Part shown: positions 5,319-45,629 of the stretch, one piece after another | Numbering within the stretch: position 1 is the first letter of the stretch | Layout of the letters: the number at the start of each line of letters is the position of its first letter | DNA from: a phage | Assembly: GCA_029944565.1 (NCBI GenBank) | Contig: GCA_029944565.1_4115.1 | DNA length: 64,000 nt | Reading direction: 5' to 3' (one strand) | The notes under the pieces: model-generated | Databases searched by the model: none | Seen by the model: the letters and a program-made list of their open reading frames with translations, nothing else | Told to the model about the DNA's origin: nothing | Translations under genes and position numbers: made by a program

Positions 5319-5811
5319 AGTATTCCTTTAGAACTTTATATGATTCAACAATACTATCTTGTGTATAATTTGAACTATATACAACAGCACTTGTTTTAGT
5401 TGACCATAGATATGACATAAAGGTTATAACACTACTACATGGACTTAATGTATTGTTTTGAAATTCAATTTCTTCAATGTTATCAGTACTGGTATAGATG
5501 AATTGGAAAGTACCCATTGATTTATTGGACAGCGATACTATAGTAGAATCCGTACCAGGACTATACATGAATGTCTCATTACTAATTGAACTATCATTAG
5601 TATATGATGGTTTGGGAATATAAATCAAACGCATGATATCGCGTTCAAGACCTGACTTATTACTTTCCACCAAAGAAATCATATCTATATTTGATATATG
5701 TTCAACACTGACATGGAACTTTTTGTCGAGAATCACATCTCCATGAGAATTTTTATATGAAGACAAAATCTCATACATCTCAACTAATTCGCGTGCATTT
5801 AATAAACTCAT
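5302..5811 (-). CDS. hypothetical protein, family A paralog
   Basis: motif EEIEFQNNTLS. Confidence 0.55.
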   Translation of the reverse strand: MSLLNARELVEMYEILSSYKNSHGDVILDKKFHVSVEHISNIDMISLVESNKSGLERDIMRLIYIPKPSYTNDSSISNETFMYSPGTDSTIVSLSNKSMGTFQFIYTSTDNIEEIEFQNNTLSPCSSVITFMSYLWSTKTSAVVYSSNYTQDSIVESYKVLKEYYENNK

Positions 5812-6236
5812 GTTTTGTCTCTTAATGAAAGAATATCCTTAGTATAAACTGAAACAGAAATATGATTATATTTCATCATTAATTTATACACATAAGAAGC
5901 TAGTACTAAATCGTAAATTAATTTAGTATTATACAGTACTTGGTATTGTAACGCAAGTGAATCAATATCATCTTTACTTTCAATATCCAGAAATGTACCG
6001 AAAAATGTAGTACCGTAGAGATGAAAAGTGGAATTAATGCAATCAATGCATTCATTGTCCAATAGAGTAGATGCTGATGCCCTCGGTGAATCCCAAATAG
6101 TCACTGCGTGTATGCCCTCAACGAACAAATCTATCCATATTTTGTGTCGTTGTCTTTTTTTTGTTTTATAATTTTCTGGATTTGAAAGTGTAGTTTCAAT
6201 TATATCCCATATGTACAAACAATCATCTCTTGTCAT
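5808..6236 (-). CDS. hypothetical protein (divergent family A?)
   Basis: 142-aa ORF, coupled to neighbours. Confidence 0.5.
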   Translation of the reverse strand: MTRDDCLYIWDIIETTLSNPENYKTKKRQRHKIWIDLFVEGIHAVTIWDSPRASASTLLDNECIDCINSTFHLYGTTFFGTFLDIESKDDIDSLALQYQVLYNTKLIYDLVLASYVYKLMMKYNHISVSVYTKDILSLRDKT

Positions 6237-10883: not shown

Positions 10884-11358
10884 TCAAATAATCCACGCAT
10901 TTATAGTAGACTGCTAAATCTAAAAAGAATCGTTGATTGTATTTGTAATGATTAAGTAGTGCACCATAAAATAACATAGCATTAAGTACTTTTACATCAT
11001 GAATACAAGAACCCTGAAAGTACATTTCCTCTGACATGAAGACTAAATCATTATACGGAACAAATACTGCTTCTCTAAATGTATCAATATTAATCTTCAA
11101 ATCAGACCCAGGGCAATATGAAATGTATTCGGCTTTGTAATGAAAGTCATTATCATCAAAGTACTCCGCGTAGATTTGATTACCTCTACCATTAGTAAAT
11201 GCTAGTCTTCCTTTAGATGAACTGAACTCATCGTATTGAAACATACCACCAAAAGGCATTCCACCAAAAGGCTTAGGACTTCTGAACTCCTTTGCAATGC
11301 GATAGATATTTTCTGTAAATTCTAAAACACCATAGTAATCATATTCTGTAGTAATCAT
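10873..11358 (-). CDS. hypothetical protein, family A paralog
   Basis: motif EEMYFQGSCIH. Confidence 0.6.
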   Translation of the reverse strand: MITTEYDYYGVLEFTENIYRIAKEFRSPKPFGGMPFGGMFQYDEFSSSKGRLAFTNGRGNQIYAEYFDDNDFHYKAEYISYCPGSDLKINIDTFREAVFVPYNDLVFMSEEMYFQGSCIHDVKVLNAMLFYGALLNHYKYNQRFFLDLAVYYKCVDYLNAK

Positions 11359-15172: not shown

Positions 15173-15618
15173 TCGAATGTAGCCTCTTCAGTAGTAACAA
15201 AATTGGTTAGTGTATCCAGTTCAGCAGTGTCAAGATAAAATACATCTAGTACAGATTTCTGATATATTACACTGAATGTGCATAGATTGTCAAGTGTTCC
15301 TTGTTCATAAACAGTACTACCCTGGAAGTACCCTTCTTCAGTACTCAGGGATAAAATATCTGAAATTTTAAAAGATTCTTCAGTTGCATGTCTTTCTATA
15401 TTAACTATATTGCCGTTTCGGTTCAATGAAATATAATCGTATGCTAACTCAATTAGACTATAATTATCCGCATTAGTGTCAAATAAAGCGACAATTTTTC
15501 GTCTCAATCTCTCATCGTGATCATGGTTTTCATCAGCTAAGTATTCAGGATTTTCTTTGAAGAATTTAACGACGCGTAGAATATCATTTGCTTTCTTGAT
15601 TGCACTTTCGTAACTCAT
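15169..15618 (-). CDS. hypothetical protein, family A paralog
   Basis: motif EEGYFQGSTVY. Confidence 0.6.
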   Translation of the reverse strand: MSYESAIKKANDILRVVKFFKENPEYLADENHDHDERLRRKIVALFDTNADNYSLIELAYDYISLNRNGNIVNIERHATEESFKISDILSLSTEEGYFQGSTVYEQGTLDNLCTFSVIYQKSVLDVFYLDTAELDTLTNFVTTEEATFE

Positions 15619-15923
15619 AATAATTCAACCACTCCATCTCTAAAGTACATATAACTACCACCATTGGATACTGTGAATTCTATTGTCCCCAATAATATAT
15701 TATATTTTTTTATTTCACATGTAGTACTTGTAGTGTAAGGCTCACCATCTCCTAAGTACATTGACATATGACATAGAACTTTTCTACCAGCATATTTCTC
15801 TTCAAACGATTGTTCAAAACTATGCATAATTTGATTTAAAGCTGAAATGTAATTAATAAAGTCAGGTATTTCTGTCAATGAATTATAAACCGTACAAAGT
15901 GAATCAAATTCATTTTTAGTCAT
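15615..15923 (-). CDS. hypothetical protein
   Basis: 102-aa ORF; no module. Confidence 0.5.
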   Translation of the reverse strand: MTKNEFDSLCTVYNSLTEIPDFINYISALNQIMHSFEQSFEEKYAGRKVLCHMSMYLGDGEPYTTSTTCEIKKYNILLGTIEFTVSNGGSYMYFRDGVVELL

Positions 15924-16237
15924 TATATTTCTATCTCAATGTAATCCTGTGTGATTAAATAATCCCAATGATACTTCACCTGCTTTTGTAATTCAATTAA
16001 CGTAAAGAAGTTGATCGATTTATCCCATACGAGAGATTCCTGGAAAATAAATGATTCATGTTCATCGTAATAATCACACTCTAAAAAATCAGGTATATAT
16101 TCACTATCGTGAATGTATTCAACAAACGAACTAGCTTGGCATTTCTTTACTACTAGTAATAATGAATTATCATGATCAAACAGATACAATAAACTAATTT
16201 CACCAGGGACGTACTGAACACTGAATAAGTTTTTCAT
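15923..16237 (-). CDS. hypothetical protein, family A paralog
   Basis: motif ESFIFQESLVW. Confidence 0.6.
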   Translation of the reverse strand: MKNLFSVQYVPGEISLLYLFDHDNSLLLVVKKCQASSFVEYIHDSEYIPDFLECDYYDEHESFIFQESLVWDKSINFFTLIELQKQVKYHWDYLITQDYIEIEI

Positions 16238-16686
16238 TCTATACCTTCTGGATCTTTACGAAGTTCTTCGAAATCCAAATAAAATCGAGGACAGTTAACA
16301 CTCTTTAAGTACCACATAATAACTAATGCTTCAAGTACTTCATCATCGTAAACAGTACTGTTTTGGAAGTAATACTCTTCACTATCCCACGGACCTTCCA
16401 GTACTTCATAATTCAAAATTAATGGTTTTTTGCGATTAATAAAACGAATGCTACCATTTTCAACATAACTAATAAATTCTGCATCTCTATTGTATTCAGA
16501 AAACGATATAGGACTATTGGAATTCAACCCAAGAATAACCCTTACACCAACGGAGTTATTATACATTTCATCCTTGTAGTAGTTGCCGTTCTCGGCTTTG
16601 TACACTTCTTTGAACTTTCCTGCCTTTATATCGTCAAAGTATCCATGTAGTTCTTTTGCTTTTTCAAGAGCACTTTGTAATGACAT
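16234..16686 (-). CDS. hypothetical protein, family A paralog (MSLQSALE subgroup)
   Basis: motif EEYYFQNSTVY; N-term MSLQSALEKAK. Confidence 0.6.
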   Translation of the reverse strand: MSLQSALEKAKELHGYFDDIKAGKFKEVYKAENGNYYKDEMYNNSVGVRVILGLNSNSPISFSEYNRDAEFISYVENGSIRFINRKKPLILNYEVLEGPWDSEEYYFQNSTVYDDEVLEALVIMWYLKSVNCPRFYLDFEELRKDPEGIE

Positions 16687-17152
16687 TACCTTCTCCTACA
16701 GTATTCTCTACATATTCATAATCAAAATAGAAACTACTGGAGTCAATACTTTTGAAATACCACATAATTACAATAACATCTAATTCTTCTTCATTGTACA
16801 ACGTACTATTCTGGAAGTAATATTCTTCACTATCCCACGGTCCTTCCAGTACTGAATAAGGAATGATAGTGTCATCAGCATCACTATCTGTGTTGTAGAT
16901 GGTAATATCTTCATTACGGCAATAACTAATGTACTGATTGTACATATGATATTCACAGTTATCACTGTCACCAGTATCAGTGTGCAGTACTAATGTTTCT
17001 GCACATATCTCGGACTCGTCATAATCGTCACGGTCTTTTACAAAAAATTCAGTATCAGATGTTTTATATACACCTGGTACTGAACCTTCCTGTACCATAA
17101 TCATGTACTCATGAATCTTCTTTGCTTCTTTCAATGCACTTTGTAATGACAT
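16664..17152 (-). CDS. hypothetical protein, family A paralog (MSLQSALE subgroup)
   Basis: motif EEYYFQNSTLY. Confidence 0.6.
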   Translation of the reverse strand: MSLQSALKEAKKIHEYMIMVQEGSVPGVYKTSDTEFFVKDRDDYDESEICAETLVLHTDTGDSDNCEYHMYNQYISYCRNEDITIYNTDSDADDTIIPYSVLEGPWDSEEYYFQNSTLYNEEELDVIVIMWYFKSIDSSSFYFDYEYVENTVGEGNVITKCS

Positions 17153-17596
17153 TACAAATCCCCTGTACTTAAATATTCACATGCTCCCCAGTCAAGAAAG
17201 AATGGTTCAAAATTCAATTCCTTAAAGTACCACAACACAACCAAGGAATCAAGAATTTCTTGGTTAAAAATGAGACTCTGTTGGAAGTAATACTCTTCAG
17301 TACCCCACGGGCCATCAAGTACCCCGAAGTCAACAGGTGTATTTGTTGTGTCAAAAGTAATCTTAGTACCTGGAATATATACAAAAAAAATTAGTATATT
17401 GACTACATGAAGAGTACTGTATAGTATTGTCTTTATCCTGTCCCATAAGTAAAATATCATCAGAGTATGTCTTTATACCTGATAGATAATACTCATTACC
17501 AAATGCACTTACTTTATCACCATAGAAACCACTTTTTATGTTATCGTGGAAGTGATGTATTCTGTGTGCTAGTTCAAGTGCACTTGCTAAACTCAT
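17152..17596 (-). pseudogene. family A paralog split by frameshift
   Basis: N-terminal ORF 17363..17596 (MSLASALE...) and C-terminal ORF 17152..17460 (EEYYFQQSLIF) overlap out of frame at A8/T8 run 17383-17390. Confidence 0.5.
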
Positions 17597-18063
17597 ATAT
17601 CCTCTTTAATAACTCGTAGTAGATCCAAGTCCAAATAGAAGCTAGGACAATCTGTATTATTAAAGTACCACAGAATGACAAGCTTGTCAAGTACATCTTC
17701 CTCGTAGATAGTATTCTGCTGGAAGTAGTACTCTTCACTTCCCCAGTCATTATCCAGTACTGAATACGGAAGATGTTTCTCTGCTGCACCAGATATAATG
17801 TCAGAATCTTGTATTAAAATATCAGCATCACGACAGAAGTACATGTAATTATCTTCCAAATTAACATCACACCCATTGAGTGTTGTTTCAGAAGAATCTA
17901 AGTTTTCTTCATACATGTGAATGTACTCACTACTGTCATCGTATCTCATTCGACAATATGATTTACCTTCCTTGAATAGATATCCATTAAGACAATTTGC
18001 TACAATTTCTTTGCTGCATAAATCAATTAACTTCGCAATCTCTAATGCTCTTTCTAAACTCAT
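17593..18063 (-). CDS. hypothetical protein, family A paralog (MSLQSALE subgroup)
   Basis: motif EEYYFQQNTIY. Confidence 0.6.
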   Translation of the reverse strand: MSLERALEIAKLIDLCSKEIVANCLNGYLFKEGKSYCRMRYDDSSEYIHMYEENLDSSETTLNGCDVNLEDNYMYFCRDADILIQDSDIISGAAEKHLPYSVLDNDWGSEEYYFQQNTIYEEDVLDKLVILWYFNNTDCPSFYLDLDLLRVIKEDI

Positions 18064-18064
18064 T

Positions 18065-18556
18065 TCAACCCCTGTTAATACCGTTATCTACAGTTTTCTT
18101 TACGTATTTGTAATCGAAATAGAAGTTCCCAGAACCAATACTTTTAAAGTACCACATAATTATAATAACATCAAGTACTTCATTATCATATACAGTACTT
18201 TGTTGGAAGTAATACTCTTCACTATCCCACGGACCTTCCAGTACTTCACTCGGAATTATAATGTCATTGGAATCGCTGTCAGTACTGTTGATGGTATCTG
18301 TATCATTAATATAGACCATGTACTCATTATGCATATTAATGAAGCATTCATAATCATTAGGGTCGGTATCTAGTATGCACGTTTCTGTATCCAGTACGCA
18401 CGTTTCTGTATCTGAGCAGTCATTATAAAGGAGGTTATCCGGTACATAATATTGAGTACTTGTGTCTTTGAAAACACCGTAAACTGAACCTTCTTTTGCC
18501 ATATTCATGTACTCATGAATCTTCTTTGCTTTTTCCAATGAACTCTGTAATGTCAT
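18065..18556 (-). CDS. hypothetical protein, family A paralog (MSLQSALE subgroup)
   Basis: motif EEYYFQQSTVY. Confidence 0.6.
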   Translation of the reverse strand: MTLQSSLEKAKKIHEYMNMAKEGSVYGVFKDTSTQYYVPDNLLYNDCSDTETCVLDTETCILDTDPNDYECFINMHNEYMVYINDTDTINSTDSDSNDIIIPSEVLEGPWDSEEYYFQQSTVYDNEVLDVIIIMWYFKSIGSGNFYFDYKYVKKTVDNGINRG

Positions 18557-19649: not shown

Positions 19650-19807
19650 AAAATCTCCTTCAGATTAGTACTGAATTTGTACAGAATATTAGAACTGTAT
19701 ACAGCCTCTGTATCTGTATCCATAATCAAATCACCTTTGTTTAAATTACAAAAGTACTGATAACTGTGCTTAAAAGAATGTACTGATATTAAAAAATCAA
19801 ATTCCAT
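19646..19807 (-). pseudogene. truncated duplicate of the N-terminus of 18922..19278
   Basis: ~85-bp direct repeat of 19195-19280 at 19727-19810 gives a 53-aa ORF MEFDFLISVHSFKHSYQYFCNLNKGDL... lacking the module. Confidence 0.45.
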
Positions 19808-20184
19808 CACACTTCCCCTAGATTGAAATGATTACAAAAATCATCTTCACCAGTACTGCACCAGATATCTATACATTCCCTGTGAATACATTTAATTCTA
19901 CGCTGTAATTCAATCATCTCTTCTAATGTACAGATGTACTTCTTATCAAATACTAATGCCGCCTGAAACAGTGCAGCATCATCAAGTACTGTATAGTCCA
20001 ACATCTCGGTTGCTTTACCCCTAAACCCAGTACTAAAATCCATCAAATAAAAGTCAGCATTCCAGTACTTTAAAATCTTGTCCCTAGCGTAGTTTAAATC
20101 ACCCTTGTATAAGTTAGAGTGCGTAACTAACTCACCAGTGTACATCCATGTCCTTGCACAAAATTCATTATATTTTATTTCCAT
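19807..20184 (-). CDS. hypothetical protein, family A paralog
   Basis: motif DAALFQAALVF; start taken at MEIKYNEF by analogy with paralogs, track ORF extends further. Confidence 0.55.
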   Translation of the reverse strand: MEIKYNEFCARTWMYTGELVTHSNLYKGDLNYARDKILKYWNADFYLMDFSTGFRGKATEMLDYTVLDDAALFQAALVFDKKYICTLEEMIELQRRIKCIHRECIDIWCSTGEDDFCNHFNLGEV

Positions 20185-20383
20185 CTTAATCTCTACTATA
20201 ATTAATAAGGTAAACTCCAATATAAGGAGAACGTTCGCCAGCGGGGTATTTTTTGTTTCAAGAAACATGAACTGTACTCTGAAAAACACAATATAAAACT
20301 TTATATTAAACATATACCTTAGCATGTTTTTCAGCGGAAATTTTTTTGACCCCCCCCCTGCGGCCTGTCAAAATGAAACGTCT

Positions 20384-20608
20384 CTATTTATTCAGCCTAG
20401 AAACCTTGATTTCTTCAATCCTTTTCATTGCACAAAGCCTTCGACTCGTCCTCTCGTATATATTCAATACTCGCTGTAATGCATTATCTGTATTATCTGC
20501 AACTGCAATCTGAACCAAATATGTATCCTTCAAAATAGAATCCATCATGAATTCAAAACCTTTCACACTAAAGCAATATGCCACTTCCGGCTCTTCAAAC
20601 GTAATCAT
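20384..20608 (-). CDS. hypothetical protein
   Basis: 74-aa ORF. Confidence 0.45.
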   Translation of the reverse strand: MITFEEPEVAYCFSVKGFEFMMDSILKDTYLVQIAVADNTDNALQRVLNIYERTSRRLCAMKRIEEIKVSRLNK

Positions 20609-36171: not shown

Positions 36172-36504
36172 TTACATTTTAATACCTGGATTCAGGTAGC
36201 GGTGAGATCCATATTCTGGATCGGTTTCGGTCCAGTACTGTAAATCGATAGTACCTTTCGCGTTAATCTTGTCTACCAGCTTATTCATCTTAGCGTATAC
36301 TACGTCAGCATCGATGCGTTTAAAGCCAGTAGCTTTAGTGAAGTAGTAGTGATTTGCTTCACTATCATTAAGGATATACCGAGCACCGTTTGCAGTCTGT
36401 GCGATAATGATTGAGTATTCTACTTCCCGATCCAGACCGTCGATGAATACAGATGAAACATTGGTACGGATGAAAGCTTTAACGATAGCGATTGAAGTAC
36501 TCAT
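36172..36504 (-). CDS. hypothetical protein
   Basis: 110-aa ORF; SD aggag. Confidence 0.6.
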   Translation of the reverse strand: MSTSIAIVKAFIRTNVSSVFIDGLDREVEYSIIIAQTANGARYILNDSEANHYYFTKATGFKRIDADVVYAKMNKLVDKINAKGTIDLQYWTETDPEYGSHRYLNPGIKM

Positions 36505-36557
36505 TTTGAATCTCCTAACTTTGTGGGCCGTCGCACCATTGCCGCCCTACGAGATAC

Positions 36558-36586
36558 ATTATCGCAGTACTGATATACTTTGTCAA
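36558..36586 (-). promoter_or_regulatory. early promoter (TTGACA-17-GATAAT)
   Basis: hexamers on minus strand upstream of 36172..36504. Confidence 0.6.
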
Positions 36587-36612
36587 TACTTTTTTTATTA
36601 ATAGTTTTAGTT

Positions 36613-36620
36613 CCACCAGC
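36613..36620. other. Chi octamer (CCACCAGC, complement of GCTGGTGG)
   Basis: exact 8-mer in intergenic DNA. Confidence 0.5.
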
Positions 36621-36652
36621 AGATAGTTACTCACCGTTATTAACTATATATT

Positions 36653-36732
36653 TTAGATACACCTATGCACCCTGTGGGCTAGTTTTTGTCTATGCGTATA
36701 TAGTACTAAAGGAGCGGACCGAAGTCAACTCC
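36653..36732 (-). promoter_or_regulatory. conserved intergenic element, copy 1 (promoter TTGACT-17-TACTAT inside UUCG hairpin, then conserved core)
   Basis: core ...tgcaccctgtgggct... at 36653-36681; hairpin ggagcggac-cgaa-gtcaactcc at 36711-36732. Confidence 0.5.
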
Positions 36733-36751
36733 TTTTTTTATTCTTTTTTTG

Positions 36752-36952
36752 TTAGATGATTCTCCAATCATCAACGATCATGGTAAGATACCGAACCAGT
36801 GATTCGAGTGATTCGTGTTCTCGATAGTCTGCCGCTCCACCAGCGGTACAAGTACAGCCGATTAAGCCGTTTTGTAGTTCCTGGATCTTTACGTCGATCT
36901 GGTTGGCTTTAGCTTCTTTCAGTACTTCAACCAGGGCGATAGCGATAGACAT
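36752..36952 (-). CDS. hypothetical protein
   Basis: 66-aa ORF; SD ggag. Confidence 0.55.
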   Translation of the reverse strand: MSIAIALVEVLKEAKANQIDVKIQELQNGLIGCTCTAGGAADYREHESLESLVRYLTMIVDDWRII

Positions 36953-36974
36953 AATGTTTTACTCCAAACTATTG

Positions 36975-37035
36975 GCGGGAGAACTATTCCCCCGCTCTAT
37001 GTAAAACATTATACATTACTGGTTAGTACTGTCAA
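36975..37035 (-). promoter_or_regulatory. early promoter (TTGACA-16-TATAAT) plus leader hairpin
   Basis: perfect hexamers; hairpin gcgggagaactattcccccgc. Confidence 0.7.
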
Positions 37036-37041
37036 ATAGTT

Positions 37042-37299
37042 TTATGAAATATCTTCGATGTAGTCGGCCCATTTCATTTTTTCAGTACTGTCAATGGCTA
37101 CCGGATTATTTGGATCAAACCATTCACCATTCCCGCAATACATACCCACGCCAGCGGTAGTATATCCATCCTGGGCCGTATTCCATGACATTGCACGATA
37201 GATATGGCCTTTAATTGGTGTTAGTACTGGTAACGTTTTATGGTCTTCTACGTAGGCCATAGCTTGAGGATTTACCCGATATTGTGTGAACTGTTCCAT
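37042..37299 (-). CDS. hypothetical protein
   Basis: 85-aa ORF. Confidence 0.55.
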   Translation of the reverse strand: MEQFTQYRVNPQAMAYVEDHKTLPVLTPIKGHIYRAMSWNTAQDGYTTAGVGMYCGNGEWFDPNNPVAIDSTEKMKWADYIEDIS

Positions 37300-37327
37300 T
37301 ATGTTTCCCCTTGTAGTTAGTAAAGTT

Positions 37328-37356
37328 ATTACATCAGTACTATCAAGCTATGTCAA
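37328..37356 (-). promoter_or_regulatory. early promoter (TTGACA-17-TGTAAT)
   Basis: hexamers on minus strand. Confidence 0.45.
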
Positions 37357-37375
37357 TAGTACTGAAATAAAACTT

Positions 37376-37600
37376 TTAGATTAGATTATTGATGCCGTTG
37401 ATGGTAGACTCGCTTTCTTCTTTCTCCCATTGGCGGTAGTACTTCCATGCTTCATGATATGTGGCGATTAGTTCATCTTTTTGATCCTGAGTACATGCCA
37501 GTACTGAATCACGGTGAGCGGTGTTATAGATAGAATCGAATGATTTCTTCTCTTCTGCCAGGTTAGCTACTTCCCGCATCAGTTCATCAAAGTTAGCCAT
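37376..37600 (-). CDS. hypothetical protein
   Basis: 74-aa ORF; SD aaggag. Confidence 0.6.
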   Translation of the reverse strand: MANFDELMREVANLAEEKKSFDSIYNTAHRDSVLACTQDQKDELIATYHEAWKYYRQWEKEESESTINGINNLI

Positions 37601-37618
37601 TTTATTACTCCTTTTAGT

Positions 37619-37675
37619 GGGGGAGGATATCTCCCCCTATGCAAAACATTATACTTTGTTTTAGTTATTATGCAA
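37619..37675 (-). promoter_or_regulatory. early promoter (TTGCAT-16-TATAAT) plus leader hairpin
   Basis: hairpin gggggag-gatat-ctccccc. Confidence 0.65.
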
Positions 37676-37931
37676 GTACTTTTTTCATATAAAGATTATA
37701 TTCTACACCGCCGTAACCTTCTACGATGATATGTTTTGCGTTATCACGTTTGCACATAGTGAAACCGTTGTTGATGTGTTCTGCATTTTCCAGGGCGACA
37801 TCACCGATAGCGGCACATACGGCACTAATAACAGTATTCCGCAAAGTACTGGTATCATTAGCGGTCATAGTAGTTTGCAGTACTACGTTGTCGTATACGT
37901 GTGCATTGATAGTGATTTCGATAGTGTTCAT
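37668..37931 (-). CDS. hypothetical protein
   Basis: 87-aa ORF; SD aggag. Confidence 0.6.
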   Translation of the reverse strand: MNTIEITINAHVYDNVVLQTTMTANDTSTLRNTVISAVCAAIGDVALENAEHINNGFTMCKRDNAKHIIVEGYGGVEYNLYMKKVLA

Positions 37932-37949
37932 GGTGTATCTCCTGGACTG

Positions 37950-38010
37950 GCGGGAGAACTATTCCCCCGCTCTATGTAAAACATTATACGTTAATCTAAC
38001 TACAATGCAA
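37950..38010 (-). promoter_or_regulatory. early promoter (TTGCAT-16-TATAAT) plus leader hairpin
   Basis: same architecture as 36975..37035. Confidence 0.65.
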
Positions 38011-38017
38011 GTACTTT

Positions 38018-38209
38018 TTAAATTTTATTTCCGATATAGTCCGGTCTATTCTTTTCGGTCATACGCTTTGCTAATGTTTGCATATGGCTTATTGCGTTTA
38101 ATGTGTCTTCCTCCAGGGATGAATCAACATAATCAGGATCATTCTTCACCTTGCAATGATTATGATAGCGTAGTACTGCCAGTACTTTTTTAACTTCTTC
38201 TACTGTCAT
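38018..38209 (-). CDS. hypothetical protein
   Basis: 63-aa ORF, ATGA-coupled to upstream gene. Confidence 0.5.
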   Translation of the reverse strand: MTVEEVKKVLAVLRYHNHCKVKNDPDYVDSSLEEDTLNAISHMQTLAKRMTEKNRPDYIGNKI

Positions 38210-38478
38210 AATAAGTACCCCACTTCGTTAGCTTTCAGGTTAGTATCAATCATCAGTGGATTTTTGTAGTTCACAAAACGATTAGTTTTCTCGATAGCGA
38301 ATCCCATATAATCCAGCTTACTAACAGTACATTCATTCTTAAAAACTTCTTTCGCTGCATCGATGGCTGATTGCATGGATAACCGACCATCTAAATTAAT
38401 GTTTCCAAATGATCCACCAGCAGAAGTAGGATTACCGTTCATATCTTTAATGATCATAGTAGCGGAGTAGCTGGACAT
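38206..38478 (-). CDS. hypothetical protein
   Basis: 90-aa ORF. Confidence 0.6.
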   Translation of the reverse strand: MSSYSATMIIKDMNGNPTSAGGSFGNINLDGRLSMQSAIDAAKEVFKNECTVSKLDYMGFAIEKTNRFVNYKNPLMIDTNLKANEVGYLL

Positions 38479-38500
38479 AATTTTGTTTCCTTTTAGTATC

Positions 38501-38559
38501 GGGGAGAACTATTCTCCCCTTGATGTAAACTATTATACAGTACTGATATACTTTGTCAA
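38501..38559 (-). promoter_or_regulatory. early promoter (TTGACA-16-TATAAT) plus leader hairpin
   Basis: hairpin ggggagaa-ctat-tctcccc. Confidence 0.7.
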
Positions 38560-38565
38560 ATACTT

Positions 38566-38973
38566 TTATTCGCCCATATAGATTAAGTTATCATCGCCTA
38601 CATAGGGATCGCAAACGTTGATTTCTTCGCAGTACTTCGTGAATACATCGCCATAGTGACCTAAACCACGATCCCAAAAACCAGTTCCGTGACCTTCGCG
38701 GGTAAGGAACAGATCATGACCAGCTTGCTCATAACCGTAATCAATAAACATACCGCGAACTACTTCCAGATCATTACCGTGTTTCTCAATGAAGCGAGAA
38801 CATGCAATCACCGCCGCTTGACGTGCTTCATCAGATAACTCATAATCTTCCAGGTAATCGCCGTTATCATTATGTACAGTACTGAATTGCATAGCTTCAA
38901 TGTAAGCTACAACCATTGCAGCATGATTTTTATCGTTAGTGATGTTCCGAGCGAGATTAGTAGTAGTAGACAT
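38566..38973 (-). CDS. hypothetical protein
   Basis: 135-aa ORF. Confidence 0.6.
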   Translation of the reverse strand: MSTTTNLARNITNDKNHAAMVVAYIEAMQFSTVHNDNGDYLEDYELSDEARQAAVIACSRFIEKHGNDLEVVRGMFIDYGYEQAGHDLFLTREGHGTGFWDRGLGHYGDVFTKYCEEINVCDPYVGDDNLIYMGE

Positions 38974-38994
38974 GATTTTATTCCTTATTGTATT

Positions 38995-39053
38995 GGGGAG
39001 AACTATTCTCCCCTTGATGTAAACTATTATACAGTACTGATATACTTTGTCAA
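38995..39053 (-). promoter_or_regulatory. early promoter (TTGACA-16-TATAAT) plus leader hairpin
   Basis: near-identical copy of 38501..38559. Confidence 0.7.
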
Positions 39054-39056
39054 TAC

Positions 39057-39278
39057 TTAATTACGTTTAAAATGATATGTGCCTTTATCATCCTGTACGC
39101 CCCACACTGATTTACCATCAACACCAGTGAAACCGGATTGTAATTCAATATGGAAACCATTATTATCAACTACAAAAACTTTTTTATTTTCATCCCGATA
39201 ACATTGATATTCTGAATCAACATTAAAGGCCGCATCATTCAGAAGATTGGAAGCGTAAATGCAAGTCATTGTAGTCAT
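39057..39278 (-). CDS. hypothetical protein
   Basis: start MTTMTCIYAS; track ORF extended through leader hairpin. Confidence 0.55.
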   Translation of the reverse strand: MTTMTCIYASNLLNDAAFNVDSEYQCYRDENKKVFVVDNNGFHIELQSGFTGVDGKSVWGVQDDKGTYHFKRN

Positions 39279-39301
39279 GATTTTATTCCTTATTCTTTGA
39301 G

Positions 39302-39360
39302 GGAGAACCATTTCCCCCTCTCGATATAAAACATTATACTTGATTCTAAGTACAATGCAA
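39302..39360 (-). promoter_or_regulatory. early promoter (TTGCAT-16-TATAAT) plus leader hairpin
   Basis: hexamers and hairpin gggagaaccatttccccctc. Confidence 0.65.
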
Positions 39361-39402
39361 GTACTTTTTTAAAAATAGTTTTCAGTACTGAATACTTATA
39401 TA

Positions 39403-39487
39403 ATAGATACATTTATGCACCCTGTGGGTCAGTGAGCTATCTCTCAATGAATATATAATAGCAAAGGGACTGACCGAAGTCAATCCC
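39403..39487 (-). promoter_or_regulatory. conserved intergenic element, copy 2 (promoter TTGACT-17-TATTAT inside UUCG hairpin, then conserved core)
   Basis: core at 39403-39432; hairpin gggactgac-cgaa-gtcaatccc at 39465-39487. Confidence 0.5.
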
Positions 39488-39501
39488 TTTTTTAATCTTT
39501 T

Positions 39502-40086
39502 TTATCGTGTTATAGTTACGGCTTTTACATCCCGCTTTTTATAGTACTGATTCCAGATATTGCGGGTTAAACCGTAATCAAGTACTTTAATAAGGCCGTT
39601 GCGATCCTGGCCGATATTCTGTTTTCTGATATCTCTTATCGTTAGTGTTGACAGTGTATCATCAACGTGTTGTAGTGCATCAGCAAAGCGGTGCTGGCGT
39701 TCAATTGCATTACGTTTAATATTGTACTTTAATTCGTTGCACGCGTTAACGTGCTTTACACTGCCTTTGCTTGCAGTACTCAACCGATCCATAACGATAA
39801 ACATATTATCAGGATCGCTTAAATGCATATGCACTTTAGCAAAGTACTGTTTCAATTGAGGGCGGTCATAGTCTAAAAAATTCCATACCTTACATTCAGT
39901 TTCATTTTGTTCTACACCCGCATCACAATTGGCGACCTTAATCACTAACCGATCATTTAAAGCGAAAACTATACGGGAAGATCCCGCCCCGATGATCTCC
40001 AGGCCAGCTAACCGACAAGCTGAAAGGATCTCTTTGTTGGTTTCCATTTCTGACAGTGTACGGATGAATTTAGTATAATTACGCAT
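39502..40086 (-). CDS. protein kinase-like protein (putative)
   Basis: glycine-rich loop IGAGSSRIVF then VIKV; catalytic-loop-like NIGQDRNGLIKVLDYG; start MRNYTKF with SD aaggag. Confidence 0.4.
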   Translation of the reverse strand: MRNYTKFIRTLSEMETNKEILSACRLAGLEIIGAGSSRIVFALNDRLVIKVANCDAGVEQNETECKVWNFLDYDRPQLKQYFAKVHMHLSDPDNMFIVMDRLSTASKGSVKHVNACNELKYNIKRNAIERQHRFADALQHVDDTLSTLTIRDIRKQNIGQDRNGLIKVLDYGLTRNIWNQYYKKRDVKAVTITR

Positions 40087-40114
40087 TGCATGTTCTCCTT
40101 GAGTTAATGAAACT

Positions 40115-40143
40115 ATATTACAGTACTTTACTATCAATTGCAA
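40115..40143 (-). promoter_or_regulatory. early promoter (TTGCAA-17-TAATAT)
   Basis: hexamers on minus strand. Confidence 0.5.
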
Positions 40144-40360
40144 CTACTTTTTTAACATTAACGGCGTGGATCACTTCCTTAGTGTTTTTAGTACTGAATA
40201 CTTTCGCCGCTCCTTGTTCGACCGTGATACGATAGCGACCATTAACATCAACCATATTAATAAAGTCCGGCGTGCTGAATGGTGTTGTTTTACATTTCAG
40301 TACTGTTAACAATTCCACCAGCGATGTAGTTTCTTTGATACGTTTTTCTAAAGTAATCAT
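40118..40360 (-). CDS. hypothetical protein
   Basis: 80-aa ORF. Confidence 0.55.
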   Translation of the reverse strand: MITLEKRIKETTSLVELLTVLKCKTTPFSTPDFINMVDVNGRYRITVEQGAAKVFSTKNTKEVIHAVNVKKVVAIDSKVL

Positions 40361-40389
40361 TTTGTTTTTCCCCGTGTTGGTATGTACAT

Positions 40390-40418
40390 ATAGTACTAAA
40401 ACATTTGAGTACTGTCAA
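40390..40418 (-). promoter_or_regulatory. early promoter (TTGACA-17-TACTAT)
   Basis: ~60-bp block duplicated at 40640-40694. Confidence 0.55.
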
Positions 40419-40637
40419 TTAGATAATTGCATATTTCTTTAAAGATAATGCGTCTTGGGTTGGCTGATACTCAATGCCGTTACCGTTATCTACTTTAACT
40501 AATAAACCTTTGTCAATTAGTTTTTTAATAGTCCTTTGGCCTTGTTGAAAATTGGTAAAATGTGAATCATTACGAAAGGTATAACCGTGCTTAACTGCTT
40601 CATCAATAGTTTTCTTTTCGATTTTAGATAATTTCAT
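40419..40637 (-). CDS. hypothetical protein
   Basis: start MKLSKIEKK; track ORF extended upstream. Confidence 0.55.
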   Translation of the reverse strand: MKLSKIEKKTIDEAVKHGYTFRNDSHFTNFQQGQRTIKKLIDKGLLVKVDNGNGIEYQPTQDALSLKKYAII

Positions 40638-40665
40638 TTTGTTTCTCCCGTGTTGGTATGTGTAC

Positions 40666-40694
40666 ATAATACTAAAACAATTGAGTACTGTCAA
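40666..40694 (-). promoter_or_regulatory. early promoter (TTGACA-17-TATTAT)
   Basis: duplicate of 40390..40418 block. Confidence 0.55.
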
Positions 40695-40945
40695 CGTGAT
40701 ATTAGTTTTATTTTCTTATTATATTGTTGGTGTTCATATAGGTTTATCTTTCCTGTGTTCTCAATTACTATTCTGTTGTTAGTGTCTACATCGATTACAC
40801 GCAGTTTTCCGTTGCTTAACTTCCTTGGTAATAGGTTACCATTAATAAACTCATTAGCAAGCTGTACGGCCTTTGTGATGATTCTCTGTGGTGCTTTATA
40901 GTGTACCCGCAAGATATTATCTTTAGATAGTTGTACCTTAATCAT
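40691..40945 (-). CDS. hypothetical protein
   Basis: 84-aa ORF. Confidence 0.55.
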   Translation of the reverse strand: MIKVQLSKDNILRVHYKAPQRIITKAVQLANEFINGNLLPRKLSNGKLRVIDVDTNNRIVIENTGKINLYEHQQYNKKIKLISR

Positions 40946-40959
40946 TTTAGTTTATCCTA

Positions 40960-40986
40960 TAAAAAAGGCGGGAACTGATCCCGCCG
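40960..40986 (-). terminator. rho-independent terminator
   Basis: hairpin ggcggga-actga-tcccgcc followed by UUUUUU on minus strand. Confidence 0.55.
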
Positions 40987-41007
40987 TGTTGTTAGTACTG
41001 CAAGTTA

Positions 41008-41403
41008 TTAGATAACCTGGCGGCGTTTACTGTATACTGTTACACGATTACCCTTACGGTCGTGTCGGATCTCTTTCTGGTTGCGTACCAGTTCACTTGG
41101 ACGCTTAAGGTTTGCCAGGTGATCCGCGTGAGTCCAAGCGGTATGGTTTGTCTGTACTTTGATATCAGAATCAGCGATAAATTCATCTTGTGCGTTAAGT
41201 ACTGCCGCCAGTAAATCCGCTCGTTTTAGTTCTGCTGCTGTTAGTACTGGCTCCGGTGAATTCACGATATCAGAGATTTCTTTGAACTGTACGGCCCAGC
41301 GTTGACCTTTCGGTGCATCTTTGCCCATGTCTTTAAATGCTGCTCCTTCCTCGCGTGCAACAATACGGGCAGCTTCACGGGTAGCGTAGAATTTAGTAAT
41401 CAT
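41008..41403 (-). CDS. hypothetical protein (paralog of 52725..52991)
   Basis: shared YATREAARIAAR, FKDMG, DRKGNRVTVY; start MITKFYATRE. Confidence 0.6.
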   Translation of the reverse strand: MITKFYATREAARIVAREEGAAFKDMGKDAPKGQRWAVQFKEISDIVNSPEPVLTAAELKRADLLAAVLNAQDEFIADSDIKVQTNHTAWTHADHLANLKRPSELVRNQKEIRHDRKGNRVTVYSKRRQVI

Positions 41404-41447
41404 GGTATACATCCTATTAGTTGAGTTAGTACTACAAGTTAGAGTCT

Positions 41448-41476
41448 ATTATAAAGTACTATCTGGGCAATGTCAA
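41448..41476 (-). promoter_or_regulatory. early promoter (TTGACA-17-TATAAT)
   Basis: perfect hexamers. Confidence 0.65.
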
Positions 41477-41498
41477 ATAGTACTTTAAATGGATTCTA

Positions 41499-41822
41499 TT
41501 ACATGTCTTTCTTACGTTTTACATCGTTGTATCGAACTGTTATTTCTTTGTTAATCTCTTTTTCGATGCGGTGAATAACTTTTTCTTTCGGGTTGAAACC
41601 TATAACGGTTTCTTTAATGATCTCCAAGCCCGTGTATTCGCCTTGTGTGCCGTAACCGTATGTAAAGGTTTCATGTCCCAGGTCTTCCCAACGATCACCA
41701 ATTAACGCAGACACGTAGCAAGAGTGGTAAGTATTGCCGTGTGAATCAGTCCACCGATTAACTTTAATGTCAAAGGAGGTTACAATTTTCAGTTCTACTT
41801 TCTGGGCAAGGATCATAGCCAT
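41499..41822 (-). CDS. hypothetical protein (paralog of 48459..48782)
   Basis: shared RWTDSxGNTYHSC, FTYGY, DVKRKKD; start MAMILAQ. Confidence 0.6.
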   Translation of the reverse strand: MAMILAQKVELKIVTSFDIKVNRWTDSHGNTYHSCYVSALIGDRWEDLGHETFTYGYGTQGEYTGLEIIKETVIGFNPKEKVIHRIEKEINKEITVRYNDVKRKKDM

Positions 41823-41844
41823 TTTTATTTCTCTCTCTTTGTTA

Positions 41845-41907
41845 GGAGGGGAACCGTTTCCCCTCACTTGATGTAAACTATTATACAGTACTAAGATACT
41901 TTGTCAA
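41845..41907 (-). promoter_or_regulatory. early promoter (TTGACA-16-TATAAT) plus leader hairpin
   Basis: hairpin gaggggaaccgtttcccctc. Confidence 0.7.
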
Positions 41908-41910
41908 TAC

Positions 41911-42093
41911 TTATTTTTTGGAAAGTTTACGCATTAATTCTACGCTTTCTTGTGAACGTTTTGCTACCTGGCAAGCTGCATGGACAGTAAACATTTTTGT
42001 ATAGTCTGACGGTTTGCCACCGAACCGAGCGGCACGTTCACGGGCACTTGGAACTAATACGATTTCTTTCTTACAGATAGTGCATTTAGCCAT
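41911..42093 (-). CDS. small Cys-containing hypothetical protein
   Basis: 60-aa ORF MAKCTICKK... Confidence 0.5.
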   Translation of the reverse strand: MAKCTICKKEIVLVPSARERAARFGGKPSDYTKMFTVHAACQVAKRSQESVELMRKLSKK

Positions 42094-42113
42094 TTTTATT
42101 TCTCTCTCTTTGT

Positions 42114-42176
42114 TAGGAGGGGAACCATTCCCCCTCTCGATGTAAACTATTATACAGTACTAAGATACTTTGTCAA
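42114..42176 (-). promoter_or_regulatory. early promoter (TTGACA-16-TATAAT) plus leader hairpin
   Basis: near-identical copy of 41845..41907. Confidence 0.7.
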
Positions 42177-42179
42177 TAC

Positions 42180-42455
42180 TTAATTATTGTAAATGTCGTG
42201 AATAGTGATAAAGTTTTTACGACCGTAAACCTGCAAATCAATATCAATGTAGTGCTTATCTAGTACATCCTCGACGCTTAACGCGGTGTCGTGGATATCT
42301 TCGTAGAATTGAGGATCTACAATCTTGCTTAAGTCATCCGGCGTTAACTCATCGTTAAGCCGTTGAACCGCCTGGATATCTGCTTCACGTTTCCAGTCTT
42401 CCAGGTTAGTAGTCAGTACTTGTTCGATTTCGTTAGCTGTCAGTAGAATCCGCAT
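42180..42455 (-). CDS. hypothetical protein
   Basis: 91-aa acidic ORF. Confidence 0.6.
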   Translation of the reverse strand: MRILLTANEIEQVLTTNLEDWKREADIQAVQRLNDELTPDDLSKIVDPQFYEDIHDTALSVEDVLDKHYIDIDLQVYGRKNFITIHDIYNN

Positions 42456-42488
42456 TTTAATGTTTCCTTATCAGTGGTTGATGTAAGT

Positions 42489-42516
42489 ATTATACTCGTT
42501 TACTTTCTATTGTCAA
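42489..42516 (-). promoter_or_regulatory. early promoter (TTGACA-16-TATAAT)
   Basis: proximal of three tandem promoters. Confidence 0.6.
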
Positions 42517-42604
42517 ACTATTTTATCAGGGGAGGTTTTCTTATGTCTTACTCCTGGACTACTTAACGGGGTTACTTGTTTCGTTCCCCGTCCTGATGTA
42601 AAAT

Positions 42605-42632
42605 ATTATACTTGATTCTAAGTACAATGCAA
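42605..42632 (-). promoter_or_regulatory. early promoter (TTGCAT-16-TATAAT)
   Basis: second tandem promoter; 70-nt leader with hairpin acgggg-N14-ccccgt. Confidence 0.55.
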
Positions 42633-42662
42633 GTACTTTTTAAAAATAGTTTTCAGTACTAG

Positions 42663-42670
42663 CCACCAGC
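42663..42670. other. Chi octamer (CCACCAGC)
   Basis: exact 8-mer next to conserved element. Confidence 0.5.
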
Positions 42671-42675
42671 AAACA

Positions 42676-42755
42676 ATAGATACATTTATGCACCCTGTGG
42701 GCTGATTTGTTTCTATGCGTATATAATAGCAAAGGGACTGACCGGAGTCAATCCC
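42676..42755 (-). promoter_or_regulatory. conserved intergenic element, copy 3 (promoter TTGACT-17-TATTAT inside hairpin, then core)
   Basis: core at 42676-42704; hairpin gggactgac-cgga-gtcaatccc. Confidence 0.5.
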
Positions 42756-42769
42756 TTTTTCAATTATTT

Positions 42770-42919
42770 TTAAACTTGTTTCGGGTTGCGATAGGTGATA
42801 GCGTTCGGGTACATTTGTTTAATGTTATTCCATGCCTGGTTAACATTGTAACCACTTGAGCGAATCAGTTGGTTGCTACCGACACCTTGAAACACTACTT
42901 CGAATAAGAATTCTTTCAT
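42770..42919 (-). CDS. small hypothetical protein (~49 aa)
   Basis: ATGA-coupled to upstream small ORF; below ORF-track cutoff. Confidence 0.35.
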   Translation of the reverse strand: MKEFLFEVVFQGVGSNQLIRSSGYNVNQAWNNIKQMYPNAITYRNPKQV

Positions 42920-43092
42920 GCTTTCACCTCGCTATCTTCTTTACCTTTACGCCAGGACATTACTAATTGTTCGCGTTGCCATAAGTCGAGTGATACAAAA
43001 AGTTTTGCGGTATCACTTTTAGGATACTCGCCATTAGTACCTAACCGATAAAACAGATCTTTCAGTACTGATAATTCTACTTGGATCATTTT
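42916..43092 (-). CDS. small hypothetical protein (~58 aa)
   Basis: ATGA-coupled on both sides. Confidence 0.35.
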   Translation of the reverse strand, partial: KMIQVELSVLKDLFYRLGTNGEYPKSDTAKLFVSLDLWQREQLVMSWRKGKEDSEVKA

Positions 43093-43178
43093 ATTACTCC
43101 TGATTGCGTTAATACTTCTACTATTGCATGAATGATCATAAGTACAGCTAAAACAATAATCATCGGATTCATTTGCAT
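43089..43178 (-). CDS. hydrophobic micro-protein (29 aa, MQMNPMIIVLAVLMIIHAIVEVL...)
   Basis: SD aaggag 8 nt upstream; single predicted TM helix. Confidence 0.35.
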
Positions 43179-43195
43179 AAGCTGTACTCCTTATA

Positions 43196-43408
43196 TTAAT
43201 CTTTCAGCCAATGATCTTGAATGAATTTTTCACAGAATCCCTGTTTCATGGATTCTAACAGGCGTTCGCGGTGAGCGTTGGCAAATTGCTCAGTACTATG
43301 CGTTACGCCAGGCTGATAACGTGATACCCCATCCGGTCCGATGTATTGAACATCCCACGGTTTTTCATTAGTATCAGACCATTTACGAACGATTAGTTGA
43401 CCTTGCAT
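43196..43408 (-). CDS. hypothetical protein
   Basis: 70-aa ORF. Confidence 0.6.
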   Translation of the reverse strand: MQGQLIVRKWSDTNEKPWDVQYIGPDGVSRYQPGVTHSTEQFANAHRERLLESMKQGFCEKFIQDHWLKD

Positions 43409-43425
43409 TTTTCTTTCCTCTCAGT

Positions 43426-43485
43426 GGGGAGAATCATTTCTCCCCTTCATGTAACTTATTATACAGTACTAGATTACATTGTCAA
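43426..43485 (-). promoter_or_regulatory. early promoter (TTGACA-16-TATAAT) plus leader hairpin
   Basis: hairpin ggggagaa-tcat-ttctcccc. Confidence 0.7.
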
Positions 43486-43491
43486 TAGTTT

Positions 43492-43815
43492 TTATTCACC
43501 TTGTTTGAATTTAGTTTTCTCCATTGATTCCATGATTGCAACCAATACGCCGTGGATCTCGCTTAACGTGGAATCACTAAAAGCATTAATGAATAGTCGA
43601 TCATTCTCACGAATATTTTTAATGTACTTTTCAGCAGTAGTTGCGAATTCATTCAACGGTAGATCAAATGCTTTATCCCATGATGGATGGCGTAATTGTA
43701 ACAGTACTGGATTATCACGATCACCAGGGGAAAACGTACCAGTGATGAAACATACGCCCGGAATACTTTCGAACTGGCAACGGACTTCCTTTGTGATAGT
43801 AGTATGAATGTACAT
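43492..43815 (-). CDS. hypothetical protein
   Basis: 107-aa ORF. Confidence 0.6.
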   Translation of the reverse strand: MYIHTTITKEVRCQFESIPGVCFITGTFSPGDRDNPVLLQLRHPSWDKAFDLPLNEFATTAEKYIKNIRENDRLFINAFSDSTLSEIHGVLVAIMESMEKTKFKQGE

Positions 43816-43842
43816 TTATTGTTATCCTCTATTAAATTAATA

Positions 43843-44031
43843 TTACAGTTTATGAATCAATTCTTTATCTAAGCGATAGCGTACATTATTAATAGTAACG
43901 GCATTGTTTTTAATGCTACGCTGTACAGGTCCACCAGCAATAACAAACGTTGCTTTATTACCCCGAACAATGATAGCACTTCCAGGATTACCGAAATCAT
44001 CTTGTACTAAAATACTTGATAAGTTTTCCAT
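43843..44031 (-). CDS. hypothetical protein
   Basis: 62-aa ORF. Confidence 0.55.
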   Translation of the reverse strand: MENLSSILVQDDFGNPGSAIIVRGNKATFVIAGGPVQRSIKNNAVTINNVRYRLDKELIHKL

Positions 44032-44050
44032 TTTTTATTTCCTCTTAGTA

Positions 44051-44107
44051 GGGGAAGATGTTTCCCCTTGATGTAAGTATTATAACAGTACTGAAAACTA
44101 AATGCAA
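44051..44107 (-). promoter_or_regulatory. early promoter (TTGCAT-17-TATAAT) plus leader hairpin
   Basis: hairpin ggggaa-gatgt-ttcccc. Confidence 0.6.
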
Positions 44108-44110
44108 GTA

Positions 44111-44467
44111 CTATGATAAAATCATGATAGGATATTCACTATCGATCAGTACCTCGAATCCGAAACCTTCGTACCATTCTTTAAGATTGAAGGCGTTATC
44201 TTCTCCTGTATCGCATTCTAAAATGATACAATCTGAATCATCGGCGGCATCAATAAAGGCATTCATTAATTCGTTACCTTCACCATTGCCCCGACTATCA
44301 GGATCAACATAAAGAGAATCAATAAACGCTACACGGTCATAATCAAGATCCGGTGCAATGATTCCACGTTTAACAAACCAGTACTGCAATTGTGCTACTT
44401 TGCCCTGTACTTGATAGCCAGTGATCTCGCCATTGTCAGTAGTACGCGTGATATGTTGTATTCCCAT
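44111..44467 (-). CDS. GNAT-like N-acetyltransferase (tentative)
   Basis: LYVDPDSRGNGEGNELMNAFIDAA resembles GNAT motif A; by eye only. Confidence 0.3.
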   Translation of the reverse strand: MGIQHITRTTDNGEITGYQVQGKVAQLQYWFVKRGIIAPDLDYDRVAFIDSLYVDPDSRGNGEGNELMNAFIDAADDSDCIILECDTGEDNAFNLKEWYEGFGFEVLIDSEYPIMILS

Positions 44468-44496
44468 GATTTCAATCCTCAGTTAAGATATAAAAT

Positions 44497-44524
44497 ATTA
44501 TACACTATCTTTCAGTACTGTCAA
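44497..44524 (-). promoter_or_regulatory. early promoter (TTGACA-16-TATAAT)
   Basis: perfect hexamers, no leader hairpin. Confidence 0.65.
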
Positions 44525-44530
44525 TACTTT

Positions 44531-44788
44531 TTATCTCATAGATCTATGCCAACAATTACGCGGGGGACGTTTAAAAGTACTATCATGATCCTCCTGGCAA
44601 GTTATGCAGTACTTACATCCCTTAACGGCCTGGCGTCGATTCTCAGGGATTATATCGCCGCAGTCGAGGCAATGTATCAGTGATTCTATTTGTGCGTTAA
44701 TTTGCTTTCTAGCGTGGTTAACGGCGGCCTGAATCACTGCGTTAATCTCGTCTTGTTCGGCCCCATCTTTCGCGAATCCTACAGCCAT
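44531..44788 (-). CDS. TraR/DksA-family C4 zinc-finger protein (putative)
   Basis: CLDCG-N17-CKYCITC spacing (CxxC-N17-CxxC). Confidence 0.5.
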   Translation of the reverse strand: MAVGFAKDGAEQDEINAVIQAAVNHARKQINAQIESLIHCLDCGDIIPENRRQAVKGCKYCITCQEDHDSTFKRPPRNCWHRSMR

Positions 44789-45039
44789 TATTTTAACCTC
44801 ATTATAAAAATACTATAGTACTGTAATGCGACAATAATATTACTTGTTCTTACTTTTTCCAATCCACATGATACCACATATTCATCCCCATATGTGCGAA
44901 ACGATACACCATGAAAATTTTTATACACTTGCACTACTAATCATAACCTTTCGTCTAACCAACTGCATAGAATTATACTACTTTACGCAAATTGATCAAG
45001 TATTGATCAGATCATTTTTTGATCAATATTATACAGTTA

Positions 45040-45115
45040 CATTTGTGCACCCTATGGGTTAGTGACGTTCTCGTCTTGATGTAAGTATTATGCCAGTACT
45101 TGATGATATTGTCAA
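45040..45115 (-). promoter_or_regulatory. orphan promoter (TTGACA-17-CATAAT) with conserved transcribed core, no ORF downstream
   Basis: hexamers at 45087-45115; transcript begins acttacatcaagacgagaacgtcactaacccatagggtgc. Confidence 0.5.
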
Positions 45116-45119
45116 TAGT

Positions 45120-45317
45120 TTATTTTAATTTTTTTCTGTCATTGATTAATGCTTTCAGTACTATACTAATGATTTGCAATGATTCATCAATGACTATAAA
45201 ATTATTCTCTTTCATTAGATGATAGTTACCATTGATTGTATATTCTAAGGAGTACTGTTTACGTTTAATTTTTGATAATGTTTCTATTTGTTTTTGTACT
45301 GATTTCATGCTAATCAT
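45120..45317 (-). CDS. hypothetical protein
   Basis: 65-aa ORF. Confidence 0.5.
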   Translation of the reverse strand: MISMKSVQKQIETLSKIKRKQYSLEYTINGNYHLMKENNFIVIDESLQIISIVLKALINDRKKLK

Positions 45318-45393
45318 TGTTAAACGTCCTGTAACGCATTCTAACGAGATAAACGGTTTAGTACTGGCATTGTATAGGGTAATGAATTAAAGC

Positions 45394-45401
45394 CCACCAG
45401 C
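45394..45401. other. Chi octamer (CCACCAGC)
   Basis: exact 8-mer within hairpin agcccaccagcg... Confidence 0.45.
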
Positions 45402-45422
45402 GTTAACCAGTGGGCTATAATC

Positions 45423-45557: not shown

Positions 45558-45601
45558 TGCGATCATTTTGTTTCTCTCTTAGGTTAAGTTAACTACTGTT
45601 T

Positions 45602-45629
45602 ATAAAACTTATTATACAGTACTATCAAA
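45602..45629 (-). promoter_or_regulatory. early promoter (TTGACA-16-TATAAT)
   Basis: perfect hexamers. Confidence 0.65.

Follow-up and report, generated by a model that had tools for sequence, protein, structure and literature searches.

A single-base frameshift or miscall at a homopolymer in one of many paralogues of an Asteriusvirus jumbo phage

Introduction

Two overlapping open reading frames (ORFs) on the minus strand of a phage contig meet at a run of eight A/T pairs. The locus raises the question whether the two ORFs constitute a single gene broken by one extra base and, if so, whether that base is present in the phage DNA or only in the assembled sequence, and whether the run serves as a site of recoding or separates two functional small genes. 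The preliminary description of the locus had offered a pseudogene in decay, a slippage-prone site and a sequencing error as possible explanations. The DNA analyzed here is a stretch of 64,000 nucleotides (contig GCA_029944565.1_4115.1 of assembly GCA_029944565.1; henceforth the window) from an Asteriusvirus jumbo coliphage of the PBECO4/121Q/G17 group.

Two halves of one gene

The N-terminal ORF begins with MSLASALELAHRIH and reaches ...QYTNFF before it runs into a six-residue missense tail and a stop (Table 1). The reading frame of the C-terminal ORF is one base further on; it carries FFVYIPGTK and EEYYFQQSLIFNQE up to the normal gene end, and also holds the stretches FFVYIPGTKITFD and GPWGTEEYYFQQSLIFNQE. 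Both ORFs are open and overlap at the run, which consists of exactly eight A on the plus strand and reads AAU UUU UUU UGU by codon in the sense of the minus-strand genes. Deletion of one A fuses the two ORFs into a protein of 147 aa, for which the junction peptide DNTIQYSSCSQYTNFFVYIPGTK is a distinguishing mark, as is DNTIQYSSCSQYTNFFCIYSR for the truncated product. The preliminary description had placed the halves of a paralogue in different frames around this homopolymer, and this is borne out. It had also proposed that a run of 7 or 9 nt would restore a single frame, which is correct for 7 and incorrect for 9: only 7 or 10 T put the halves back in one frame, and 9 stays out of frame.

Table 1 Features of the disrupted locus and its flanking paralogues
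Feature	Coordinates	Strand	Description
Disrupted gene, whole	17152..17596	(-)	445 nt; relatives hold an intact CDS of 444 nt or 441 nt at the equivalent position
A8/T8 run, one-base insertion site	17383..17390		A8 on the plus strand, T8 in the sense strand
N-terminal ORF	17363..17596	(-)	77 aa: 71 native residues, missense tail CIYSRY and TAA stop
C-terminal ORF	17152..17460	(-)	102 aa; first 24 residues out-of-frame filler, native from FFVYIPGTK
Downstream PHROG 9317 paralogues, intact	16234..16686 and 16664..17152	(-)	
Upstream PHROG 9317 paralogues, intact	17593..18063 and 18065..18556	(-)	

The two ORFs are two halves of one gene, and this reading is not a matter of chance, because the repaired protein aligns end to end with all four flanking paralogues listed in Table 1. 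The repaired protein also matches the PHROG 9317 profile over its full length (residues 1–145 against positions 1–155 of 160, E = 1.8e-55), whereas each unrepaired ORF spans only half of the profile. The disrupted gene is the orthologue of PBECO4 gp190, 121Q gp372 and G17_00553 (intact CDS of 444 nt), a member of PHROG 9317, an uncharacterised family found in RaK2/121Q-like jumbo phages, and one of five adjacent close paralogues, besides which there are about 35 distant ones. Its start and the end of the nearer upstream paralogue overlap in ATGA; its stop and the start of the nearer downstream paralogue overlap in TAATG, and the latter gene has its own GGGGA Shine-Dalgarno sequence.

Protein family and predicted fold

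An AlphaFold2 model was built for the orthologue P0001, which is 94% identical, and it comprises one compact α/β domain (pLDDT 88, pTM 0.84). In this model the break after residue 71 falls inside the β-strand formed by residues 70–73. The 77-aa product would keep helix 3–22 and four β-strands, and would be left without the remaining half of the sheet, all C-terminal helices and the EE-YFQ core; paralogue alignment and model together place the invariant residues E100, E101, Y103, F104 and Q105 in the part removed by truncation. If the extra base is real, the 77-aa main product is probably non-functional.

The predicted fold bears directly on gene fission, according to which the two ORFs would be separate functional small genes. 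That both are open agrees with such an arrangement, but the single compact domain of the model would be cut within a strand, the C-terminal ORF starts with 24 out-of-frame residues, and no relative has the arrangement. We consider fission extremely improbable. Independent translation of the C-terminal ORF was likewise rejected, given those out-of-frame residues and the lack of a ribosome-binding site: no Shine-Dalgarno-like sequence was found at a usable distance upstream of its ATG.

An iterated search that started from the repaired protein recovered about 35 tandem ORFs on the minus strand at approximately 600–29000 of the window, which share an F-Q core motif (EEYYFQ, ELFQ or EEFFQ), and PHROGs 9317, 12674, 15629 and 13866 match one another. 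These ORFs form a very large paralogue superfamily with a confidently predicted fold, for which no structural relative was found in the PDB. The family, of which the first 29 kb of the window contain about 35 members, is a more interesting object than its split copy.

Comparison with related phages

The region is 84–99.8% identical to 34 phage records, all of them from jumbo phages of E. coli or Salmonella and most of them labelled Asteriusvirus (PBECO4, 121Q, G17, phAPEC6, SHEFM2K and others). None of the 34 is identical to the region, and none carries the A8 allele. In 28 records the match extends over all 445 nt of the query, in each case over 444 nt of the record's own sequence, and for the Salmonella phages SD-2_S15, SD-6_S16 and SD-15_S21 the extra base is the sole difference, the remaining 444 nt being identical. 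An intact gene with an A7 tract was seen in SD-6_S16, G17 and PBECO4; 121Q has an interrupted run. Across 25 phage-record loci the tract is A7 in 19 and CATAAAA in 121Q, slurp01 and A4; the tract pattern search found no run in ph0011 and UE-S1. One intact ORF of 146–147 aa is present in 24 of the 25 records, the exception being CMSTMSU, an UNVERIFIED record with seven gaps within the orthologue. Twelve more NCBI assemblies, with contigs of about 350 kb, have T7 or TTTTATG in the sense strand and an intact gene in all cases, which brings the sequence-checked genomes with an intact gene to about 36, CMSTMSU remaining the sole exception. A comparison of orthologues had been proposed as a check in the preliminary description, and it yields the same 146–147-aa gene in these relatives, with either A7 or an interrupted run.

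The closest records to the window are L044 (GCA_012474735.2) and L039 (GCA_014816185.1), with one mismatch (99.94% identity) and two mismatches, respectively, in 3454 nt. In both alignments the extra base is the only gap and in both records the gene is intact; the tract in L044 is A7. In a large protein collection the orthologue is represented by five clusters with 68 member sequences, and a length of 146–147 aa is common to the five cluster representatives and the 15 sequences listed from the largest cluster. Searches of complete E. coli genomes and of a plasmid collection returned no match whatever, and pattern scans of IMG/VR and JGI metagenomes for A7–A9 alleles returned zero matches. Neither split product was recovered by exact look-up, which is weak evidence, as pseudogenes may have no recorded product.

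Among the records compared, A8 is unique to the genome of the window, and the ancestral state is A7 or an interrupted run. The dN/dS values of 0.18–0.46 obtained against divergent orthologues (121Q, slurp01, ph0011, UE-S1 and EC.P1) indicate that the orthologues are under purifying selection. In divergent orthologues the tract residues NFF are replaced by SFM or NFI, and because these replacements break the run while one ORF is kept, the homopolymer itself is not under selection. The run is broken and the protein nevertheless kept in 121Q, slurp01, A4, ph0011, UE-S1 and L045. The proposal of a pseudogene in decay is not supported by these comparisons, in which the other 444 nt are identical to those of intact orthologues and the relative at 99.94% identity over 3.4 kb is intact.

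Recoding and phase variation

A different role for the run would be that of a functional slippery site, used for programmed +1 ribosomal frameshifting, for programmed transcriptional slippage at U8, or as a phase-variable switch. The sense T8 has a length at which E. coli RNA polymerase slips measurably, productive slippage on eight A occurs in some organisms (Baranov et al., PMC1088944), re-pairing from UUU to UUU in the +1 direction is possible, and A/T 8-mers are otherwise strongly avoided in the genome (2 runs of eight in the window versus 16.4 ± 5.3 in dinucleotide shuffles). The split is, however, not conserved and is not programmed recoding, because the relatives are intact with A7 or an interrupted run; the two-frame layout is found in 0 of about 36 relatives, and those with a broken run (CATAAAA and others) keep the protein. 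Conservation of both run and two-frame layout in homologues, the hallmark of programmed transcriptional slippage, is not seen here. Programmed +1 frameshifting is characterized by a slippery P-site codon with a stop or a slowly read codon next to it in the A site, by an upstream stimulator and by conservation in orthologues, whereas the codon after the present run is UGU, which is neither a stop nor rare, no Shine-Dalgarno-like element precedes the run, the RNA around the run has less structure than shuffled sequences (z = +1.38), and orthologues do not share the arrangement. Relatives, codon context and lack of RNA structure together led us to reject programmed recoding. A -1 frameshift at U_UUU_UUU was rejected as well, the -1 frame being an unrelated 56-aa ORF.

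For a phase-variable locus, polymorphism of tract length among isolates would be expected, but about 36 genomes have an in-frame length and A8 occurs only in the window. On comparative grounds the functional slippery site is largely refuted, and we regard it as very unlikely. The slippage-prone site of the preliminary description, if understood as a site that is used or programmed, is left without support, given that no other genome compared has the split and that the run is unconserved in divergent orthologues.

As in prfB-type programmed +1 frameshifting, a +1 step leads from the upstream to the downstream frame and a P-site UUU can re-pair with an overlapping UUU; unlike in prfB, there is no stop or hungry A-site codon, no upstream Shine-Dalgarno-like stimulator and no conservation in orthologues. 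The U_UUU_UUU heptamer in a phage gene is reminiscent of the -1 frameshifting of tail assembly chaperones (G/GT), but a -1 shift would here enter an unrelated frame, the gene lies outside the tail module and the arrangement is unconserved. Phase-variable contingency loci likewise have a homopolymer in the coding region that toggles the frame by ±1; in contrast to these, the present tract has no length polymorphism besides the window's genome, and its ON state is a mere 7 nt and unconserved. A leaky contingency-type switch in a jumbo phage is a highly improbable notion; if the extra base is real, replication slippage in phage populations would toggle this one paralogue between A7 and A8, and about a tenth of the full-length protein would still be made through slippage of the host RNA polymerase on U8.

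Mutation or miscall

The best explanation, to which we assign about an even chance, is that the extra A:T pair is really in the phage DNA and arose by very recent replication slippage from A7 to A8; we infer that the base is present in the DNA and not only in the assembly. DNA polymerase would have slipped on the A7 tract that nearly all close relatives carry in the gene, and the slippage would be very recent and specific to the isolate or stock from which the window derives. The frame would shift after residue 71 of the 147-aa single-domain PHROG 9317 protein, the main product would be a 77-aa fragment without the conserved core, and the affected copy would be a null or strong hypomorph. Homopolymer frameshift lesions are recognized by a one-base change in run length relative to intact orthologues and by the loss of conserved, structurally required parts; the present locus has A8 against A7 with no other difference, and such parts are lost.

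Comparison with SHEFM2K, from which the window differs by approximately 1.7% substitutions, reveals this as the sole genuinely split gene across 64 kb, and in the densely coding first 31 kb as a single isolated coding-frame indel. The 28 runs of seven in the window present no frame-breaking problem, and the second A/T 8-mer (6155-6162, A8 in the sense strand) lies in frame within ORF 5808..6236(-). A generally error-prone assembly is unlikely, because this one split gene with its isolated frame-breaking indel is all that is seen, and general assembly error was rejected as an explanation. Substitutions also separate the window from every known relative, and one real indel is therefore in proportion. 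Several points count against a real mutation: real disruptions in the 11-gene block are rare, with none in 14 relatives, A8 occurs in no other record searched, and purifying selection argues against free tolerance of null alleles.

Homopolymer length is a classic error class of several sequencing platforms, and a sequencing or assembly artefact, with A7 and an intact gene in the phage and a consensus miscalled as A8, is a serious possibility that we nonetheless rate somewhat below an even chance. Run length is the only difference from three intact orthologues (SD-2_S15, SD-6_S16 and SD-15_S21), relatives at 99.9% identity have A7, A8 is in no other public record searched, neither split product is recorded, and the intact copies are under purifying selection, all of which is compatible with a miscall. 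The data are explained equally well by a lone consensus error, placed where the gene has its longest run of sense T, and the UNVERIFIED record CMSTMSU demonstrates that poor assemblies exist in the genus. As in known homopolymer miscalls, a single-base over-call in a 7-mer would split an otherwise perfect gene; unlike in these, the event is isolated in a window otherwise free of such errors. With an error-prone platform one would expect several such indels, but there is no second frame-breaking homopolymer indel despite 28 runs of seven and another run of eight.

A similar change was observed in a different assembly, L038 (GCA_958334435.1 CATVAS010000009.1). At the equivalent of window position ~15711, the orthologue of 15615..15923 has an A7-to-A8 change that shortens it from 102 to 74 aa. 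This lesion, in a gene near the disrupted one, is of the same class and counts in favour of a real mutation.

Possible rescue by transcriptional slippage

If A8 is real, a minority of full-length protein could plausibly be made through slippage of the host RNA polymerase on the sense T8, one U fewer in the mRNA being enough to restore the frame. For E. coli RNA polymerase on T8 in a GFP reporter, rescue by deletion amounts to ~10% (PMC6260861), and a similar level may apply to the gene of the window. Disrupted genes that carry such runs have been described by Baranov et al. 2005 (PMC1088944), and tssM of Citrobacter rodentium (PMC4256274) is a further example of an A/T-homopolymer frameshift allele with partial rescue through non-programmed transcriptional slippage. 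The present allele resembles those rescued by slippage in that a one-base run change occurs in a gene with intact orthologues, T8 is long enough for measurable slippage by E. coli RNA polymerase and a one-base deletion in the mRNA would restore the frame. It differs in that its run of 8 nt is shorter than the 9 nt at which selection is usually visible, and in that the allele occurs in a single genome, is known from sequence alone and may be absent from the DNA. Polarity on the downstream paralogue 16664..17152 should be limited, because this gene has a Shine-Dalgarno sequence of its own.

Annotation and further features of the window

The split amounts to an ordinary frameshift of one base within a homopolymer, or else to a miscall, and concerns one of many copies of a phage gene. 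The annotation should describe both ORFs together as a single, frameshifted orthologue of PBECO4 gp190/121Q gp372, to be corrected if the tract is A7; an annotation as a recoding site or as two novel small genes would be mistaken. A real mutation would amount to a naturally occurring knock-down within a large uncharacterised family under purifying selection in Asteriusvirus, affecting one of its members, and could serve for asking whether single copies are dispensable.

Several other features of the window were noted. A run of C9 on the plus strand at 20350-20358 (G9 in the sense of the minus-strand genes, followed by A7) lies in the intergenic region between 20384..20608(-) and 19807..20325(-); it is the only G/C run longer than five in a window of 34.5% GC, and has no length difference from SHEFM2K. 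An in-frame insertion of 15 nt relative to SHEFM2K is located at 11258-11274 and resembles a local duplication of CACCAAAAGGC. In the region ~36500-49200, the motifs TTGTCAATAC-T6/7 and ATGCAAGTAC-T5/6-AAAAA recur in short intergenic regions between small genes, with T-run lengths one base off those of SHEFM2K; they are probably repeated promoter or terminator elements. Many Asteriusvirus contigs, mostly of 320–355 kb, were also found in NCBI assemblies with proteins labelled as Escherichia coli (L026, L030, L032-L034, L038, L039 and L042-L046), which suggests carry-over or a carrier state of these jumbo phages in isolate sequencing.
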